DNA of 64,000 nucleotides, taken from IMG/VR virus record IMGVR_UViG_3300021959_008125, positions 21,866 to 85,865 of that record. One strand, 5' to 3'. The position numbers and the translations under genes were made by a program. The notes under the pieces were generated by a model, which saw only the letters and a list, made by a program, of their open reading frames with translations, did no database searches and had not been told where the DNA came from. The DNA comes from a virus. Shown in pieces: positions 36,637 through 57,787 of the stretch (its first letter is position 1; every line of letters begins with the position of its first letter).

Positions 36637-36683
36637 TTGTTTTTTACGTATAATTTTCTTATATTATATATAAAATAAGTTAT

Positions 36684-36821
36684 ATGTCAAAAAATTCAAG
36701 CAAACAAAATCTTAACCAGTTGATAGAGTGGCTAGCGGCCAATAAAAACGTTAAGAAGGTATACAAAGAAGGAGGAAAAGTAAAATTTAATGCACCTCAC
36801 TTTAACAAAAGAAGAAAATGA
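36684..36821 (+). CDS. Small basic hypothetical protein (45 aa, not in ORF track)
   Basis: MSKNSSKQ...NKRRK; follows a promoter and overlaps the thioredoxin start (ATGA). Confidence 0.55.
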   Translation: MSKNSSKQNLNQLIEWLAANKNVKKVYKEGGKVKFNAPHFNKRRK

Positions 36822-37078
36822 AAAAGTTAATAAAATTTTATGCTGCATGGTGTGCTCCATGTAGAAGTTATGCAAATACCTGGGATGAAGTAACTCCTGA
36901 TTATGCAGATCAAATCGAACTTCATAATATCGATATTGATAAAGATACAACAGGTCTAGCTAATGAATACCAAGTAAGAAGTATTCCTACAACAGTTTTA
37001 GTTAGAGAAGACGGGTCAACTGTTAAAAAAGTAGGAGCTTTATCTAAAGAAGATTTAACCGAACTAATTTTATCATAA
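36818..37078 (+). CDS. trxA: Thioredoxin
   Basis: FYAAWCAPC, VRSIPT. Confidence 0.93.
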   Translation: MKKLIKFYAAWCAPCRSYANTWDEVTPDYADQIELHNIDIDKDTTGLANEYQVRSIPTTVLVREDGSTVKKVGALSKEDLTELILS

Positions 37079-37375
37079 ATGTTACGTAAACCAGATTCAA
37101 TCCCTGCAGGGGATACAATTATCGAAGATCCAGCAATGGAACCATTTTTTATTACTAAATCACAGACAGGTGGATATACTGTTTATGAAAGAGTAACAAA
37201 AGGAGAGAACAATACTAATTATATTAAAACTGTAAGTTACCCTTCAAACTTTGGTGCAGCATTAAAAACTGTATCTTTAGAGCTATTAAATGAAGGAGGA
37301 AAAGTTTATAATATAAAAAGTTATGTAGAACGTTGGGAAGAAATAAAAAATTCCTTAACTTCTGTATTAGAATAG
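37079..37375 (+). CDS. Hypothetical protein
   Basis: 98 aa ORF coupled to thioredoxin. Confidence 0.65.
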   Translation: MLRKPDSIPAGDTIIEDPAMEPFFITKSQTGGYTVYERVTKGENNTNYIKTVSYPSNFGAALKTVSLELLNEGGKVYNIKSYVERWEEIKNSLTSVLE

Positions 37376-37408
37376 CGTTTGCCTATACGCTTAATAATAC
37401 CTGGCAAA
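37374..37408 (+). ncRNA. Putative H-type pseudoknot cis-regulatory element in the queC leader
   Basis: Stem AGCGT/ACGCT; loop TTGCC pairs with downstream GGCAA; promoter-like TTG-N20-TAACTT just upstream. Confidence 0.45.
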
Positions 37409-37427
37409 TTTTATTAATTATTTTATC

Positions 37428-38246
37428 ATGGCAAAAAATGTCGTAGTTAGTCTTTCAGGAGGGATGGACTCCTCTACTCTTTTACTTAGATGTTTATCTG
37501 AGTATGACAATGTAACAGCTTTATCTTTTGATTACGGTCAAAAGCATAGAGTAGAACTTGAAAGAGCACAGTCTTTAGTAGATTATATTAATGAAAATTG
37601 TACTGACGAAAATTGTTTCGGCGGATGCAGAGTTAACTATCAAGTAATTAAGTTAGATGGCTTAGTTAATCTTTTAAACTCTAACCTTGTAGAAGGTGGA
37701 GAAGATGTACCGGAAGGTCATTATGAAGAAGATAACATGAAAGCAACAGTTGTACCTAATAGAAATAAAATCTTTGCTTCTATCACGCAAGCTGTAGCTT
37801 TATCAGCAGCTAATGCTAACGGTTTAGATACCGATATTGCTTTAGGAATTCATGCCGGTGATCATGCTATCTATCCAGACTGTAGACAAGAGTTTAGAGA
37901 TGCAGACGATAATGCATTTAGAATCGGTAACTGGGATGCAGAAAAAGTAGGTTATTTTACTCCTTACTTAGATACTGATAAATTAGGAATTTTAAAAGAT
38001 GGACAAAAATTGGTTAAAGAGTTGGGAATTGAGTTTAATGAAGTTTACAAACGTACTAATACTTCCTATAAGCCTTTTCCTAGCGGGAATAGTGATTATA
38101 AGTCCGCTTCATCTGTTGAGCGAATCGAGGCGTTTATCAACCTCGGTGTGGATGACCCTGTTCAATACGAGGATGAAACTGGACCGGTTGACTATTCAGT
38201 TGCGAAATCTCATGTTGAAAAGCTTTTAGCAGAACACGCAGCATGA
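37428..38246 (+). CDS. queC: 7-cyano-7-deazaguanine (preQ0) synthase
   Basis: SGGMDS, FDYGQKH..E, VPNRN, HAGDHAIYPDCR. Confidence 0.95.
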   Translation: MAKNVVVSLSGGMDSSTLLLRCLSEYDNVTALSFDYGQKHRVELERAQSLVDYINENCTDENCFGGCRVNYQVIKLDGLVNLLNSNLVEGGEDVPEGHYEEDNMKATVVPNRNKIFASITQAVALSAANANGLDTDIALGIHAGDHAIYPDCRQEFRDADDNAFRIGNWDAEKVGYFTPYLDTDKLGILKDGQKLVKELGIEFNEVYKRTNTSYKPFPSGNSDYKSASSVERIEAFINLGVDDPVQYEDETGPVDYSVAKSHVEKLLAEHAA

Positions 38247-38583: not shown

Positions 38584-38655
38584 GGCCCCTTCGTCTATCG
38601 GTTAGGACGTTAGGTTTTCATCCTAGAAAGAGGAGTTCGATTCTCCTAGGGGCTA
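38584..38655 (+). tRNA. tRNA-Glu (anticodon TTC), CCA not encoded
   Basis: Acceptor GGCCCCT/AGGGGCT; D arm CGTC..GACG; anticodon arm TTAGG-TTTTCAT-CCTAG; T arm AGGAG-TTCGATT-CTCCT. Confidence 0.95.
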
Positions 38656-38668
38656 CAAATAACTTTCT

Positions 38669-39256
38669 ATGAAAATTCTCTTATTATGTGAACCCAGATC
38701 AGGCTCTACTAGATTAGGGAACTGGTTTGGTTTAAATAATGATTTTGATGTTAGGTATGAATCGGCAGCTTGGGATAGCCCTTGGTGGTACGGTCCTAAA
38801 CCAGAGAATAATATTTTAAGAGACGGGTATAAACATTTAGTACTTAAAGAAGTTTTTTATGGGAGATCTAGTCAAATTAAAACCAATTGGGTCGACTATA
38901 TGGATTATGTAGATAAGACGATATTTCTATACCGTGAAAATGAAGAAGATCAAATCATATCCTGGAATCATGCTCAGGTGACTGGTAACTTCTGCGGTCA
39001 ATATCCTGCGAACACTGTTGAGCTTGTACCGGATAACGTAAATTACTTTAAAAAAATCAAAAAGAATTTTGAAGATTTTAGAGAAGAGCACAAAAATAGA
39101 GCATTGAATATATCTTATGAAGATTTGTATTATAGAAATAAAATTCATATTTTAAAAGAGTACTTAGGATTAGATAAAGAATTGAATTATACGTTTCCTA
39201 TTGGGGTTCGATACCGTTATGAAAAGAAAAAACAAGATCCTAAAAAGTTAATATGA
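38669..39256 (+). CDS. Sulfotransferase (Stf0-like)
   Basis: PRSGST, LYREN...Q..SW, ISYEDL. Confidence 0.8.
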   Translation: MKILLLCEPRSGSTRLGNWFGLNNDFDVRYESAAWDSPWWYGPKPENNILRDGYKHLVLKEVFYGRSSQIKTNWVDYMDYVDKTIFLYRENEEDQIISWNHAQVTGNFCGQYPANTVELVPDNVNYFKKIKKNFEDFREEHKNRALNISYEDLYYRNKIHILKEYLGLDKELNYTFPIGVRYRYEKKKQDPKKLI

Positions 39257-39714
39257 TATACTGGTTTACAGGACAGCCGGCACACGGTAAAACGGTTTTA
39301 GCAAACATGTTAAAACAGCATCTTCCTAATGCTTTTAGGATAGATGGAGATGAGATGAGAGAACTCTTTACTAATAAAGATTACTCTATTAATGGCAGAG
39401 TAGTTAATGTAGGTACAGCTCAAAAGATAGCACACTATCTTCATAATCAAGGAGAAGATGTAATTGTATCTTTAGTTGCACCTTACATAGATCAAAGAGA
39501 AGATTTTAAAAAATTACTTGGTGATAATATAGTAGAGATATATGTACATACATCAGAACCTAGGGAACGAGATCACTTTAGAGCGATAGCTTATGTTGCT
39601 CCTCAGGAAAATTTTATCGATATTGATACTACTGACGATACCCCTGAAGAATCTTTTGAAAAGATAATTGTTGCTATAAATAAAAAATGGAAAAAAAGAA
39701 CACATACTTCGTAG
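39253..39714 (+). CDS. cysC: Adenylyl-sulfate (APS) kinase
   Basis: WFTGQPAHGKT, IDGDEMR, DYS..GR, VSLVAPY...R. Confidence 0.9.
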   Translation: MIYWFTGQPAHGKTVLANMLKQHLPNAFRIDGDEMRELFTNKDYSINGRVVNVGTAQKIAHYLHNQGEDVIVSLVAPYIDQREDFKKLLGDNIVEIYVHTSEPRERDHFRAIAYVAPQENFIDIDTTDDTPEESFEKIIVAINKKWKKRTHTS

Positions 39715-40028
39715 ATATAGACGGGACTATTTTTGTCTATAGAAAATTTGAAACTTATGAGAGTTCCGAAGCTCAAGTTATAAAATCTACAAAACAATTT
39801 CTACAGCAGAAAAAAGATGAAGGCCACTGTATAGTTTTAACTACAGCTAGACCAAATTACCTAAGATTACATACTGAATATGAATTAGAAATAAATAATA
39901 TTCCTTATGACCAATTAGTTATGGGCATAGAAAGAGGACCAAGGTATTTAATTAATGATATGGACCCTAATAATCCCGGAGAACGAGCAATTGCGATAAA
40001 CTTACATAGGGATATAGGAATCAAATGA
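39687..40028 (+). CDS. HAD-family phosphatase
   Basis: DIDGT, TTAR, LIND. Confidence 0.8.
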   Translation: MEKKNTYFVDIDGTIFVYRKFETYESSEAQVIKSTKQFLQQKKDEGHCIVLTTARPNYLRLHTEYELEINNIPYDQLVMGIERGPRYLINDMDPNNPGERAIAINLHRDIGIK

Positions 40029-40766: not shown

Positions 40767-41168
40767 ATGGCAGAAATAAAAGCAAAGGCAGATAAAGAAA
40801 GTTCATCATCAGAAGTAAAGTATTCATTCTTTGCTGGTAGATGGCAACCACTACACAAAGGACACCTTTGGTTAATCAACGAAAGATTAAAAGAAGGTTA
40901 TAATGTATGGTTAGGAATTAGAGATGTTAAACCTGACGAAAAAAATCCTTGGACTGCTCAGGAAATCTTAGAAATGGTAAAAGAAGGAGAGTTAAAAGAA
41001 CTCATTGAAGCTGGTAAAGTTTTACCTACTATTATTCCAGATATTGAATCTATTAACTACGGTAGAGGAGTTGGTTACGATATAATAGAACATATTCCAC
41101 CTAAAGAAATAGGAGATATATCAGCTACCTCTATTAGAGAACAAATGAAAAAAGATGGTAAGTTATAA
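40767..41168 (+). CDS. HxGH nucleotidyltransferase (cytidylyltransferase-like), candidate minimal ATP sulfurylase
   Basis: GRWQPLHKGH, NP, YGRGVGY, ISATSIR; near cysC. Confidence 0.7.
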   Translation: MAEIKAKADKESSSSEVKYSFFAGRWQPLHKGHLWLINERLKEGYNVWLGIRDVKPDEKNPWTAQEILEMVKEGELKELIEAGKVLPTIIPDIESINYGRGVGYDIIEHIPPKEIGDISATSIREQMKKDGKL

Positions 41169-50832: not shown

Positions 50833-50850
50833 TATATCAATACTGACTAT

Positions 50851-50878
50851 AGTGTCGTAGCACCACTTTAAAAACACA
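50851..50878 (+). ncRNA. Putative class I preQ1 riboswitch aptamer
   Basis: P1 AGTG/CACT, loop TCGTAGCAC, tail TTAAAAACAC; lies upstream of the queD-queE operon; second copy before folE. Confidence 0.75.
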
Positions 50879-50882
50879 TTTT

Positions 50883-51140
50883 ATGAAAACAGAAGAACAA
50901 AGGTTATTAGATGAACTCTATGATGTAGAGACAAGAAGAGTAACCGGTGATAGCACTTCATCACCGTTAACAGCCGACAACTTACAAGACTACCCAGACG
51001 CAAAAAAACACCAAATTGTGTCGTTTATTAAATCAGGAATTAGAATTTTAGGATATTGCTTTATACCTTTCAATTTGGTAATTTCAGCAATTTTACTTAT
51101 ATTATCTGAAATAGTAGGTATAATCGAAGAATTAGTTTAA
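50883..51140 (+). CDS. Small membrane protein heading the queD-queE operon
   Basis: Hydrophobic C-terminus (IRILGYCFIPFNLVISAILLILSEIVGII). Confidence 0.65.
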   Translation: MKTEEQRLLDELYDVETRRVTGDSTSSPLTADNLQDYPDAKKHQIVSFIKSGIRILGYCFIPFNLVISAILLILSEIVGIIEELV

Positions 51141-54041: not shown

Positions 54042-56576
54042 ATGTTTAATTTTAATTTATTTATGATGAGAAATCTCATTTTAACTCTGTTAGGTTTACT
54101 AACAGTTGGAGCTTACGCTCAAGAAAGCGCTGTAAATGACACAATCGTTACACAGCAGTTAGAAGAAGTTGTAGTCTCTTCAAGAGTTATTGACGTTGCT
54201 AAAGCACGTGTTACTCCTGTAGCAGTATCAACAATTTCAGCTAGCGACATTTCGTTGAAAGTAGGTAACTTAGAGTTTCCTGAAATCATGAACAGCACAC
54301 CTGGTGTGTATGCTACAAAACAAGGCGGTGGATATGGGGACTCTCGTATCTCATTACGTGGTTTTGATCAGCGTAACACTTCTTTCCTTATCAATGGACA
54401 ACCAGTTAACGATATGGAAAACGGATGGGTGTATTGGTCAAACTGGCAAGGATTAACCGATGTTGCTTCAGGTATCCAAATCCAAAGAGGATTGGGCGCT
54501 TCAAGGTTAGCAGTACCTTCTGTAGGTGGAACAGTATCCATCTTCACAAAAGCTGCAAGTAAAGATGAAGGAGGATCATTTACTCAAGTAATCGGAAATG
54601 ATGGCTACACTAAAACAACAGCAGCCTACAACACCGGTAAAAACGAGAACGGATGGGCAACTTCTGTTTTATTAAGTAAATGGGCTGGAGACGGTTACAT
54701 TTATAATACATCCGGAGAAGGATGGACTTACTTCTTTGCATTAGGATATGCACCAGAAGATTCTAATCACGCTCTTAACTTATCAGTTTTAGGTGCAGGA
54801 CAATGGCACCACCAAAGAGATGTTTGGGTATCTATTAGAGATTACCAAAACTTCGGAGAAGAAGGAATTGATAGAAGATGGAATTCAAATGGTGGAATTT
54901 TAAATGGAGAAGAATATTCTTTAAGAAGAAACTTCTACAACAAACCATTAGCTACATTGAACTGGGATTGGGATATTTCTGAGAACGTTCAATTAAACAC
55001 TTCTTTCTACGCTTCAGCAGGTAGAGGTGGAGGAACAGGACCTAGAGGTAATAACTTTAGAGGTTCAGCAACAGATATCTTACCTTTTAGAAAAGATCTA
55101 ACTGAGCATTACTTAGAAAATGGTAGAGGTTCAAGATTGGCTAATGGATTTATTGATTTTGATGCTATTGTTGCTTCTAACAGAAATACGACTGATCCTT
55201 ATACTGGAGATATTTCTAGATTTGCTGGTCAAAAAATTGGTTCTAATGGATTTAGAGATGATGGAGTAAATAGAGTAGCTTTAATTAGAAGAGCTTCTAT
55301 GAACTCTCATGACTGGGTAGGTGCAATTTCGTCTTTAGATATTACTTCTGGTAATTTTAAATACTCTTTAGGAGTTGATCTTAGAAACTACACTGGGTAT
55401 CATTACCGAGTAGTTAACGATCTATTAGGATTAGATGGTTATTATTCAACAGGTAACAAGAACTCTGCTGGTCAGATTATTGAAACAACAGTTGAAGCAA
55501 ACCCATTCAAGAACACTGGAATTAGAGGACCTAAAATCGACTACTATAATATCGGTAAAGTAGGTTGGCAAGGTGTTAACGGTTTAGTTGAATATAACAA
55601 CTCTACCTTATCTGCAGTATTACAAGCAGGTCTATCTAACCAATCATTCCAAAGAATAGACTACTTTGATCAACCTGGTAATCCAGAATCTGATGTACAA
55701 AATCAAGGAGGAGGATATGTTAAAGGTGGTGCTAACTATAACTTAGATGAAAAATCTAATGTATTCTTTAATGCAGGTTATATCTCTAGACAGCCACAAT
55801 TTGACGCAGTATTCCCTAACTATGCAAATAACATCAATCCAGATCTACAAAACGAAGAAATTCAATCAGTAGAATTTGGGTATGGATTTATTACAAATAA
55901 GTTAAAATTAAACGTAAACGTTTACTCTACAAACTGGGGTAATAGATTTGTTACAAGAAACTTATCTAACCAGCAAGGAGTAGATGGATTCGCACAATTT
56001 AAAGATATCGATGTTACTCACAACGGTATTGAAATTGAAGGAACTTATAGTTTATCTTATAAAACTAAGTTTAAAGGAATGTTATCAATTGGTGACTGGA
56101 CTTATGATCAAAACTTTGAAGCTGAATTATTTGACGATAATCAGCAATCAATCGGTACTGGAACTCTTTATACTAAAGGAGCTAAAGTTGGTGATGCAGC
56201 ACAATTCGTTGCTAACCTAGCAGTTGATCAAAACTTAGGAAGATTAGGTAAGTTAGATCTTAACTATAGATTCGTAGATGGTTTATATGCTGACTACTCG
56301 ATTACAGATTCAGCATTTACTTCACCAGATAACGATGGTGCGTTAAAACTACCTTCTTACGGTATTGTAGACCTAGGATATACAAAATACTTCGGAAGTA
56401 AATTAAGCTTCAGAGCGAATGTAAATAACGTGTTAGACACAACTTATATTGCTGAGTCTAACTCTAATATTCATGCAGGAGCAGGCTCAACTACATGGAA
56501 TGGAATCGATGTAAGAAACTCAGTATGGTTCGGATTTGGAAGAACTTTCAATGCGTCTCTTAAATATAGATTCTAA
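54042..56576 (+). CDS. TonB-dependent outer-membrane receptor
   Basis: Signal peptide (likely start 54063), TonB box LEEVVV, plug TPGVY/SLRGF/LINGQP/IQRG, C-terminal GRTFNASLKYRF. Confidence 0.95.
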   Translation: MFNFNLFMMRNLILTLLGLLTVGAYAQESAVNDTIVTQQLEEVVVSSRVIDVAKARVTPVAVSTISASDISLKVGNLEFPEIMNSTPGVYATKQGGGYGDSRISLRGFDQRNTSFLINGQPVNDMENGWVYWSNWQGLTDVASGIQIQRGLGASRLAVPSVGGTVSIFTKAASKDEGGSFTQVIGNDGYTKTTAAYNTGKNENGWATSVLLSKWAGDGYIYNTSGEGWTYFFALGYAPEDSNHALNLSVLGAGQWHHQRDVWVSIRDYQNFGEEGIDRRWNSNGGILNGEEYSLRRNFYNKPLATLNWDWDISENVQLNTSFYASAGRGGGTGPRGNNFRGSATDILPFRKDLTEHYLENGRGSRLANGFIDFDAIVASNRNTTDPYTGDISRFAGQKIGSNGFRDDGVNRVALIRRASMNSHDWVGAISSLDITSGNFKYSLGVDLRNYTGYHYRVVNDLLGLDGYYSTGNKNSAGQIIETTVEANPFKNTGIRGPKIDYYNIGKVGWQGVNGLVEYNNSTLSAVLQAGLSNQSFQRIDYFDQPGNPESDVQNQGGGYVKGGANYNLDEKSNVFFNAGYISRQPQFDAVFPNYANNINPDLQNEEIQSVEFGYGFITNKLKLNVNVYSTNWGNRFVTRNLSNQQGVDGFAQFKDIDVTHNGIEIEGTYSLSYKTKFKGMLSIGDWTYDQNFEAELFDDNQQSIGTGTLYTKGAKVGDAAQFVANLAVDQNLGRLGKLDLNYRFVDGLYADYSITDSAFTSPDNDGALKLPSYGIVDLGYTKYFGSKLSFRANVNNVLDTTYIAESNSNIHAGAGSTTWNGIDVRNSVWFGFGRTFNASLKYRF

Positions 56577-56592
56577 TATTGAAAAAAAAATT

Positions 56593-56622
56593 AAGGGGAG
56601 CTTTTTAGCTCCCTTTTTTTTT
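56593..56622 (+). terminator. Rho-independent terminator
   Basis: AAGGGGAGCT-tttt-AGCTCCCTTT followed by a T run. Confidence 0.88.
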
Positions 56623-56636
56623 CTTATATTATTAAT

Positions 56637-57056
56637 ATGAAAGAAAAGGTTTATTTATCATGGAATTGGGTAGATCAACAAGTTATGACTCTTGGGGAGA
56701 CTATCAAAGAATCAGTCAGTGAATTTTTATACGTAACAGGCATTCCAAGAGGAGGTTTAATCCCTGGAGCATACCTTTCACATTATTTAGGAATAAAATA
56801 CATTCCATATGCTGATGCAAAACAGCTTCCTATAAGTCTTAGAAAACAAGTTTTAGTAATAGACGATATCTGTGATAGCGGTATGACTTTATTAGAAGCT
56901 ACAGAATACGGATTCCAGACAGCAGCTTTAGCATACAGATACTCTTCTCCCTATATGCCTGAATGGTATTCAGAAAAAATAGAAGATGATAGATGGCTTG
57001 TATTTCCATGGGAAAGAGTAGATTCAAAAACAATACAAGATTATTTGGATAATTGA
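56637..57056 (+). CDS. Purine phosphoribosyltransferase (Gpt-like)
   Basis: GIPRGGLIP, VLVIDDICDSGMT (PRPP loop), WLVFPWE. Confidence 0.9.
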   Translation: MKEKVYLSWNWVDQQVMTLGETIKESVSEFLYVTGIPRGGLIPGAYLSHYLGIKYIPYADAKQLPISLRKQVLVIDDICDSGMTLLEATEYGFQTAALAYRYSSPYMPEWYSEKIEDDRWLVFPWERVDSKTIQDYLDN

Positions 57057-57073: not shown

Positions 57074-57086
57074 GTATAATGGTTAT

Positions 57087-57116
57087 GAGTGTCGTAGAAC
57101 CACTTTAAAAAACAAT
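57087..57116 (+). ncRNA. Putative class I preQ1 riboswitch aptamer
   Basis: P1 GAGTG/CACTT, loop TCGTAGAAC, tail TAAAAAACAA, a few nt from the folE ATG. Confidence 0.78.
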
Positions 57117-57118
57117 TA

Positions 57119-57787
57119 ATGAGTAAAGATTTAGAATTAGTAAAAGTAGGTTATGCCAACGGAGTTGCTCCTGGCTTTCCTCTAACAGAAGATGAAAAAT
57201 GGAAAATGGTCGAACTAGCGGCTGAAAAGTATGGAGAGTTTCTCGATGCTTTAGGTTGTGATTGGCGTAATGATCCTAATTCGGCTGATACTCCTAGAAG
57301 AGTAGCTAAAGCCTATGCATTCGATCTATGGAAAGGTAGATACGATGCTATGACTGATATAACAGCATTTCCTTCTGACGGTTATAACGGAATCGTTCAG
57401 GAGTCTAATATCCCGGTGACATCGATGTGTAGCCATCACCATCAGACTATTGGTGGTCGTGTGAGTATCGCTTATGTACCGTCTGAGAATGGTAAAGTAG
57501 TAGGTCTGTCTAAACTCAACCGAATCGTCGAGCATTTCGGTAGAAGAGGTGCTATACAAGAGCAGCTTACTGTAGCCATTCATAATGCAATCGATAAGAT
57601 TTGCGAAGGTAACTTAGGTGTAGCGGTAATGATCGATGCTACCCATAACTGTGTTAGCTGTAGAGGTGTTAAACATCACGGTGCTTCAATGCAAACAGCT
57701 AAACTATCAGGATGCTTCTTAAATGAAGATTCAGCGAGAGCGGAGTTTTACAAGAATATTGAACTAGCAGGAAAATGCAGATCGTAG
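57119..57787 (+). CDS. folE: GTP cyclohydrolase I
   Basis: TPRRVAK, SMCSHH, GLSKLNR, IQEQLT, H.CVSCRGV. Confidence 0.97.
   Translation: MSKDLELVKVGYANGVAPGFPLTEDEKWKMVELAAEKYGEFLDALGCDWRNDPNSADTPRRVAKAYAFDLWKGRYDAMTDITAFPSDGYNGIVQESNIPVTSMCSHHHQTIGGRVSIAYVPSENGKVVGLSKLNRIVEHFGRRGAIQEQLTVAIHNAIDKICEGNLGVAVMIDATHNCVSCRGVKHHGASMQTAKLSGCFLNEDSARAEFYKNIELAGKCRS

Follow-up and report, generated by a model that had tools for sequence, protein, structure and literature searches.

The queC locus and its leader

The window analysed here comprises 64,000 nucleotides of one strand of an 85.9-kb IMG/VR phage record, IMGVR_UViG_3300021959_008125, and its element of interest is a small pseudoknot in the leader of the 7-deazaguanine synthesis gene queC. 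The knot is a conserved, covarying RNA that is specific to phage queC leaders, absent from Rfam and fixed in its place before queC. It probably senses a metabolite of the pathway by which guanine is replaced in the phage's DNA, and would be a sensor not yet catalogued. The nearest named relative of the record is Flavobacterium phage vB_FspM_immuto, with 73.5% DNA identity across half of the query. The gene behind the element, queC (37428–38246, + strand), encodes a protein of 272 residues that matches Pfam PF06508 with an E-value of 8.3e-38 and the QueC-like family phrog_1550, as well as, weakly, the Pfam families NAD_synthase and tRNA_Me_trans. Ahead of the element on the + strand the gene order is orf45-thioredoxin-orf98-queC. 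The last upstream open reading frame (ORF), orf98 (37079–37375, +), codes for 98 residues, and Pfam and PHROG searches gave no match to it or to the neighbouring small ORFs. The intergenic gap between orf98 and queC is 52 bases, and the TAG stop codon of orf98 (37373–37375) overlaps the first helix of the element, whose first two bases are the AG of that codon.

The element is an H-type pseudoknot with a 34-nt core in which the second helix, P2, crosses the first, P1. Read along the + strand, AGCGT (37374–37378) is followed by TTGCCTAT (37379–37386), ACGCT (37387–37391), TAATAATACCT (37392–37402), GGCAA (37403–37407), 20 bases and the queC ATG at 37428. In the RNA, the 5′ strand of P1, AGCGU (37374–37378), pairs with the 3′ strand ACGCU (37387–37391), the first A of which joins U37378 in an invariant U-A pair at the junction of the two helices. 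P2 is formed by UUGCC (37379–37383) and GGCAA (37403–37407); these strands are fully complementary in the window, with a conserved pairing core of only GCC (37381–37383) and GGC, and the two outer U of UUGCC may act as the first loop, L1. The second loop, L2, is UAU (37384–37386), and the third, L3, is UAAUAAUACCU (37392–37402). A 20-nt spacer of A and U only (37408–37427) leads from the knot to the start codon. The letters of the window bear out the first-pass annotation in its description of the stems, the loop and the distance to the ATG, in the coordinates of the TTG and TAACTT words upstream, and in its reading of an H-type pseudoknot with perfect TTGCC/GGCAA pairing 20 nt before queC.

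Both helices are weak, with a median of −4.2 kcal/mol for the P1 hairpin and about −4 kcal/mol for the P2 duplex before loop penalties. The nested minimum free energy (MFE) fold of positions 37360–37440, computed from the single sequence, has a z score of −0.24, and 79 of 200 shuffles fold as well. An upstream extension, GUAUUA/UAAUAC, taken from the MFE fold is conserved in one subgroup only and was rejected. Masking of the start codon by pairing of the loop UUUGCC with AUGGCAAA was also discarded, since many relatives begin with other codons.

Conservation and covariation

A QueC-based retrieval of 80 IMG/VR loci, together with the immuto region, gave 82 sources, and the element stands before queC in 81 of them. 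Two more QueC-based retrievals seeded with divergent copies and one pattern scan extended the set to 334 loci, whose regions upstream of queC comprise 186 distinct sequences. In 155 of these regions the element was recognised by a rule-based parse, as 87 distinct cores, and one further region has a weak copy. The flanking DNA cannot be aligned across relatives and the upstream context differs, which indicates that the element travels with queC. Among 126 distinct upstream contexts, a long ORF stops within −3 to +1 of P1 in 35, further upstream in 42 and inside the element in 7, while 42 have no ORF ending nearby. Stimulation of stop-codon readthrough or frameshifting was rejected on these counts, the stop overlapping P1 in only 35 contexts and 42 having no candidate ORF end.

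The distribution of the element is narrow. When the window is searched with a covariance model built from the blind MAFFT alignment A1, a single copy scores 61.6 bits and the next best match 9 bits; the whole 85.9-kb record likewise holds one copy. The pattern scan of viral contigs returned 80 matches, 66 with QueC downstream, 2 cut by contig ends and 12 chance matches that have no P1. Searches of cellular genomes, which were narrow in that variant P2 types were left aside, covered 185,579 species genomes with the exact pattern and gave 21 matches, 2 of them genuine and both on phage-like contigs of metagenome-assembled genomes (MAGs) with a phage-type queC behind. The model was also run on 151 genomes belonging to the same order as one of these MAGs; only the contig of that MAG scored well, and the nine best weak matches cover the 3′ half only. 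In all scans run here, genuine copies lie ahead of queC, on the queC strand and solely in phage-type DNA. Among named phages the element occurs only in the immuto records, where it is unannotated. One locus (L156, 10602–11075) carries a main-type knot, a 7-codon queC stump and a 62-residue ORF, followed by a variant knot (ACUCC/GGAGU) with a full queC, an arrangement that looks like replacement or insertion of a whole motif-plus-queC cassette; the upstream regions of two other loci (L338 and L339) hold similar tandem remnants.

P1 is supported by covariation in the covariance-model alignment of 83 matches, A2. There 96.6% of its cells are paired, three of four pairs have changed on both sides, and 41 cells show two-sided change against 10.8 ± 2.7 in shuffles; the covariation score was reached by none of 500 shuffles. 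Slid controls on the same alignment are at most 41% paired, against 87%. The changes fall on pairs 2 to 4 counted from the junction, and in the 87 cores pair 2 occurs as GC, AU or UA, pair 3 as CG, GC, GU, UA or AU and pair 4 as GC, AU or GU, so that each of the three positions has at least three pair types. The junction pair is U-A in 82 of 82 cells of A2 and in all 87 cores. RNAalifold, applied to 54 of 74 representative leaders, predicted the same P1 independently, and in these leaders, followed as far as +24 of queC, it found no further conserved helix, the spacer included.

P2 was scored by a script parse that uses sequence anchors independent of P2 and an energy-weighted choice of register. 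This choice replaced an alternative register for the main type, GCCUA/UGGCA, which is weaker. The main type is GCC/GGC, and variant lineages, in which the 3′ strand changes jointly with the 5′ strand, have GGCCC/GGGUC, GACCC/GGGUC, GCUAC/GUAGC, ACUCC or GCUCC with GGAGU, AAAGC or GAAGC with GCUUU, AGAGC/GCUCU and GAAGC/GCUUC. At least seven different complementary 5-mers therefore occur at positions set by the independent anchors, and by our estimate a 5-bp match would arise by chance, with about six registers allowed, with a probability of about 0.04 per sequence type. Pair 2 from the junction is CG, GC or AU, and pair 3 is GC, CG, AU, UA or GU. The inner three pairs form in 87 of 87 cores, which is partly forced by the parse, and the outer two form in only 44 and 59 of 87, so that the main-type P2 is effectively a helix of 3 bp. 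Conservation and covariation in relatives were the points on which the first-pass annotation had staked its proposal; the knot is conserved, being present in 155 of 186 regions, and both stems covary. We regard this comparative evidence for the pseudoknot as decisive.

Against this background of changing stems a small set of positions stands fixed across the family: the U-A pair atop P1, the U preceding the 3′ strand of P1, the junction C-G of P2 and the A-Y-A-C-Y tail of L3. L1, the other stem positions and the first part of L3 are free to vary. L2 is UAU in 74, U in 11 and AU in 2 of the 87 cores, and its final U, which stands at the position of the specificity cytosine of the preQ1-I riboswitch, is present in 87 of 87 under a search rule that required it; all 63 sequences in the blind alignment A1 have this U as well, and no C variant occurs among the listed sequences of relatives. 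L3 is 8–17 nt long and A/U-rich, variable in length and letters at its 5′ part and conserved in its tail, A-Y-A-C-Y(U), which reads AUACCU in 74 cores, CAUACU in 5, AAUACC in 3 and otherwise in 5. The spacer from P2 to the ATG measures 15–23 nt in 152 of 155 regions and is nearly pure A/U. The queC leaders of five loci (L362, L364, L365, L370 and L390) have variant knots with a P1 of 6–7 bp, other P2 letters and a GGAG or AAGG word, the knot ending a few bases before this Shine-Dalgarno (SD) sequence; the family thus reaches phages whose hosts probably use SD sequences.

Relation to known RNAs

No Rfam 15 family matches the element. This was the outcome when the whole window was searched at the gathering score, and also when the search was confined to 801 or to 76 bases with E ≤ 10 allowed. 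The families without a match in these searches include all three preQ1 riboswitch models, RF00522 (preQ1-I, gathering score 39 bits), RF01054 (preQ1-II) and RF02680 (preQ1-III), in agreement with the first-pass statement that the knot lacks the preQ1-I loop consensus. We found no report of the element in the literature searched; supplements and subscription-only papers lay outside that search, so a listing in a supplement is possible.

The closest structural comparison is with preQ1-I. According to a 2024 review (PMC11625349), the base immediately 5′ of the P1 3′ strand is a strictly conserved cytosine in every preQ1-I type; it pairs with the ligand and sits in UC (type I) or AC (types II and III). 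The pocket floor is a conserved G-C pair, the O6 of which holds the aminomethyl group, L1 contains a U, and an adenine-rich L3 places its adenines in the minor groove of P1, where they read the edge of the ligand; the ligand site is at the helical junction. The queC element shares the size of about 34 nt, the H-type topology, a P1 of 5 bp, a very short P2, an A-rich L3 expected to run along P1, conserved bases clustered at the P1/P2 junction and a place in the leader of a 7-deazaguanine synthesis gene. In contrast to preQ1-I, its base before the P1 3′ strand is U rather than a strictly conserved C, the pair closing P1 is U-A rather than G-C, the L3 tail is A-Y-A-C-Y rather than a run of adenines, the knot contains neither SD sequence nor start codon, and the family model does not match. 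Because the specificity C is always U and the floor G-C always U-A, two features that define preQ1-I fail, and the sequence comparison places the queC element outside this class in spite of the shared size and topology.

The other two preQ1 classes are more distant. According to the same review (PMC11625349), preQ1-II and preQ1-III adopt HLout folds with four or five helices, class II being confined to Bacillota, and their pockets use a U-A-U triple as floor, a cytosine, a uracil and adenines. They resemble the queC element in being pseudoknots of the same pathway, and they differ in their HLout topology, a size about two to three times larger, helices P1 to P4 or P5 and an SD sequence inside or near a helix, whereas the queC core has 34 nt and two helices. 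It is speculation that the invariant U, U-A, A, A and C of the queC element could supply the same set of pocket letters.

Two miniature preQ1-I-like leaders lie in the same genome and on the same strand, one before queD-queE (about 50841–50885) and one before folE (57081–57121). They share genome, pathway and strand with the queC element and likewise consist of a small hairpin and an A-rich tail near a start codon, but by our reading they keep AC before the P1 3′ strand. Only a few bases separate them from the ATG, as against 20 for the queC element, which also has other conserved letters. The folE leader gives a weak RF00522 match of 17 bits where the queC element gives none, and of five large relatives three have both the queC element and a preQ1-I-like word, which argues that they have different jobs and fits the first-pass idea of a third sensor.

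Transcription unit and expression signals

The words TTG (37333–37335) and TAACTT (37356–37361) are present, and the first-pass annotation had read them, with their 20-base spacing, as promoter-like. Both lie inside orf98 (37079–37375), the sigma-70 scan does not list the pair, and it is common only to relatives that also share orf98; we have rejected it. The window also has a recurrent word, TTC[TGA]TATATT[AT], which is probably the promoter motif of this phage. It has 11 exact copies in the window, all on the coding (+) strand and 10–35 nt before start codons (9587, 17752, 26971, 27650, 31524, 36656, 40741, 50823, 56621, 60273 and 62000); with one mismatch allowed there are 58 copies, not above the 47.9 ± 7.7 of shuffles. 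Such words stand just ahead of the queD-queE and folE leaders. The nearest upstream of queC, TTCTTATATTA (36656–36666, +), lies about 770 bases away, before orf45-thioredoxin-orf98-queC, which makes the queC knot intercistronic in the window. The proposal of a structured leader at the start of each of the three que transcription units is accordingly not supported in the window, where the orf98 stop overlaps P1. In relatives, a copy of the word with at most one mismatch is found within 60 nt upstream of P1 in 39 of 131 contexts. The terminator scan gave no terminator-like site in the queC leader, and the only such site nearby (37457–37475) was set aside as lying within the SGGMDS-coding part of queC. 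Separately, many unrelated Rfam families match weakly on both strands at 56507–56650 (L20_leader at 24 bits, and others), which suggests a long hairpin or terminator-like structure just ahead of the promoter-like word at 56621.

Neighbouring genes

A small thioredoxin gene (36818–37078) lies two genes upstream of queC in the window; in a large relative, G156, its counterpart lies between queC and queD (L401, 1215–1472). A tRNA-Glu (UUC) gene is present at 38584–38656, between the ORF after queC and the next ORF, and immuto has a tRNA cluster in the corresponding place. Further downstream of queC, at 39253–40028 and 40767–41168, are an APS-kinase/zeta-toxin-like P-loop kinase, a small HAD-type phosphatase and a cytidylyltransferase-like gene, which may be nucleotide-level helpers of the modification pathway.

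Discussion

The queC-leader element shares several general traits of riboswitches: covarying helices, invariant unpaired bases and a place in the leader of a gene in the candidate sensed pathway. We judge it rather likely that the element is a new, uncatalogued riboswitch-like sensor that acts on translation initiation. In the mechanism we propose, a metabolite of the 7-deazaguanine pathway would bind among the invariant bases, which are clustered where P1 meets P2, and would lock the weak P2 onto P1. The folded knot would then abut the AU-rich stretch of 15–23 nt needed for ribosome loading, and would in this way tune translation of queC, which in many relatives means a queC-...-queD-queE operon. 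From the sequence and its variation we infer that a ligand is bound and which one it is, as well as the step at which control acts and its direction, probably off. The first-pass annotation had offered a variant aptamer or a protein-binding element; these are the right pair of options, and we favour the aptamer.

Several observations weigh against a metabolite sensor. Occurrence solely before queC is also what an autoregulatory protein site would show, and the fold in the window alone is no better than that of shuffles. The element is dispensable, given that 30 of 186 relatives are without it. Support for P2 comes from counts made by a structure-fitted parse that demands at least three contiguous pairs per stem, and the unedited alignment A2 shows no two-sided change in P2, because variant lineages are misplaced by 1–2 columns in both the MAFFT and the covariance-model alignments. 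Many of the sequences are close kin, so cell counts overstate the number of independent events. RNAalifold gives no conserved alternative helix or expression platform, and the knot, ending 15–23 nt before the ATG, masks neither the start codon nor the GGAG of the SD-bearing variants. Lastly, in the preQ1-I mode of binding a U at the specificity position would be expected to disfavour every guanine-faced intermediate of the pathway. A C-to-U mutant of the Bacillus subtilis aptamer reportedly shifted specificity to 2,6-diaminopurine.

The gene content of relatives offers clues to a possible ligand. According to the Cui et al. preprint, in which the word riboswitch does not occur, immuto replaces all deoxyguanosine (dG) by formyl-dPreQ1 (fdPreQ1) and encodes FolE, QueD, QueE, QueC, QueF and DpdA3. 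In the relative G156, a 163.6-kb record judged complete (CheckV 100%), the element stands at the head of a compact queC-orf73-thioredoxin-queD-queE operon (L401, G156:C1:75427-78849) in which the gene at the queE position is a radical SAM, QueE-like gene, and that record has neither a QueF (PF14489) match nor a preQ1-I-like word. More broadly, queD lies within 2 kb in 64 of 120 motif-bearing loci with at least 2 kb of downstream sequence, and a crude word test finds no preQ1-I-like loop word in 63 of 70 distinct queC-to-queD gaps. The QueF-less genome and the gaps that lack the word favour a metabolite upstream of preQ1, and we therefore favour preQ0 or 7-carboxy-7-deazaguanine (CDG) over preQ1 as the ligand, with the caveat that the host could supply QueF. 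The family model for tRNA-guanine transglycosylase (TGT) found no match in the five large relatives, so DpdA types could not be compared. Changes at key pocket positions often signal a new ligand, as the review points out (PMC11625349). More tentatively, and with less confidence than in a sensor as such, the element may be a fourth, phage-borne sensor of 7-deazaguanine metabolism, of preQ1-I size with a rebuilt pocket (C to U, G-C to U-A), that would read preQ0, CDG or another intermediate instead of preQ1 and would exert SD-independent control over the supply of enzymes for the replacement of guanine in DNA.

The strongest competitor is a protein-binding operator, in which QueC or another phage protein would bind the knot, perhaps spread onto the AU-rich spacer, and repress translation; we consider it unlikely. 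Genuine copies ahead of queC alone are what such a site predicts, no expression platform is visible, and QueC is a PP-loop ATPase of a fold that includes RNA-binding enzymes. QueC acts, however, on a free base, and to our knowledge it has no RNA role. The arrangement of a knot followed by an unstructured, AU-only spacer to the ATG resembles that of T4 gene 32, whose mRNA carries a 5′ autoregulatory pseudoknot and then an unstructured AU-rich leader up to the start codon. The gene 32 product is reportedly a single-strand-binding protein that coats its own leader, whereas the product of queC is a metabolic enzyme. The conserved bases of the queC element are found where the two helices meet and in that stretch of L3 which is expected in the P1 groove, where they would probably be buried, while the P2 letters are free to change, a pattern that speaks against a protein contact. 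In many relatives, moreover, the element heads the whole queC-queD-queE cluster, and two metabolite-type leaders already serve the same pathway in the genome.

The knot might instead be a ligand-independent structural element that stabilises the 5′ end of the mRNA, positions ribosomes on a leader devoid of an SD sequence, or pauses RNA polymerase before the AU tract, which strikes us as quite improbable. In favour of such an element are the lack of a conserved switch helix and the constant distance from knot to ATG; the promoter-like word within 60 nt upstream in 39 of 131 contexts would put the knot near the mRNA 5′ end there, and the invariant U, U-A and A could conceivably close a base triple in a ligand-free RNA. 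A general device of this kind should nevertheless be found before other genes, yet the 85.9-kb record holds a single copy and elsewhere only queC contexts have it; both stems are also weak, which would be unusual for a purely architectural knot.

That the element is an ordinary preQ1-I member sensing preQ1, merely too diverged for the Rfam model, is highly improbable. Size, topology and the kind of pathway gene are shared, and the L3 tail and P1 3′ strand of the L365-type lineage resemble the preQ1-I-like leaders of the window. Against this, the specificity C is U and the floor G-C is U-A in every core (PMC11625349 for the class features), RF00522 gives no match even in 76 bases as against 17 bits for the folE leader, and G156, judged complete, carries the element although no QueF match exists there. 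The insignificant fold of the single sequence might suggest an inverted repeat due to chance, or a site read in the DNA, for instance a palindromic operator. Either is barely credible, as stem letters change with complementarity kept and the helices interleave, a sign of selection on RNA rather than on a DNA palindrome recognised by a protein, and the element is always on the queC strand.

The interplay between a pathway metabolite and this leader, if it exists, would bear on questions beyond the locus. Control by riboswitches of mRNAs that have no SD sequence is named an open challenge in the 2024 review (PMC11625349), and the element offers a test case for such control in mRNAs of the Bacteroidota type. 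With an RNA of about 34 nt and a cultured relative, Flavobacterium phage immuto, the question is directly testable. The preQ1 riboswitch classes are textbook models of minimal ligand-binding RNA, and a natural relative of the smallest of them with two key pocket positions exchanged would show how a pocket is retuned. For the phages themselves, a sensor in this position would add to the few regulatory RNAs that are specific to phages, and it would be linked to a DNA-hypermodification (anti-restriction) pathway; if the more specific proposal of a fourth 7-deazaguanine sensor is true, it would be the first riboswitch class dedicated to DNA hypermodification.

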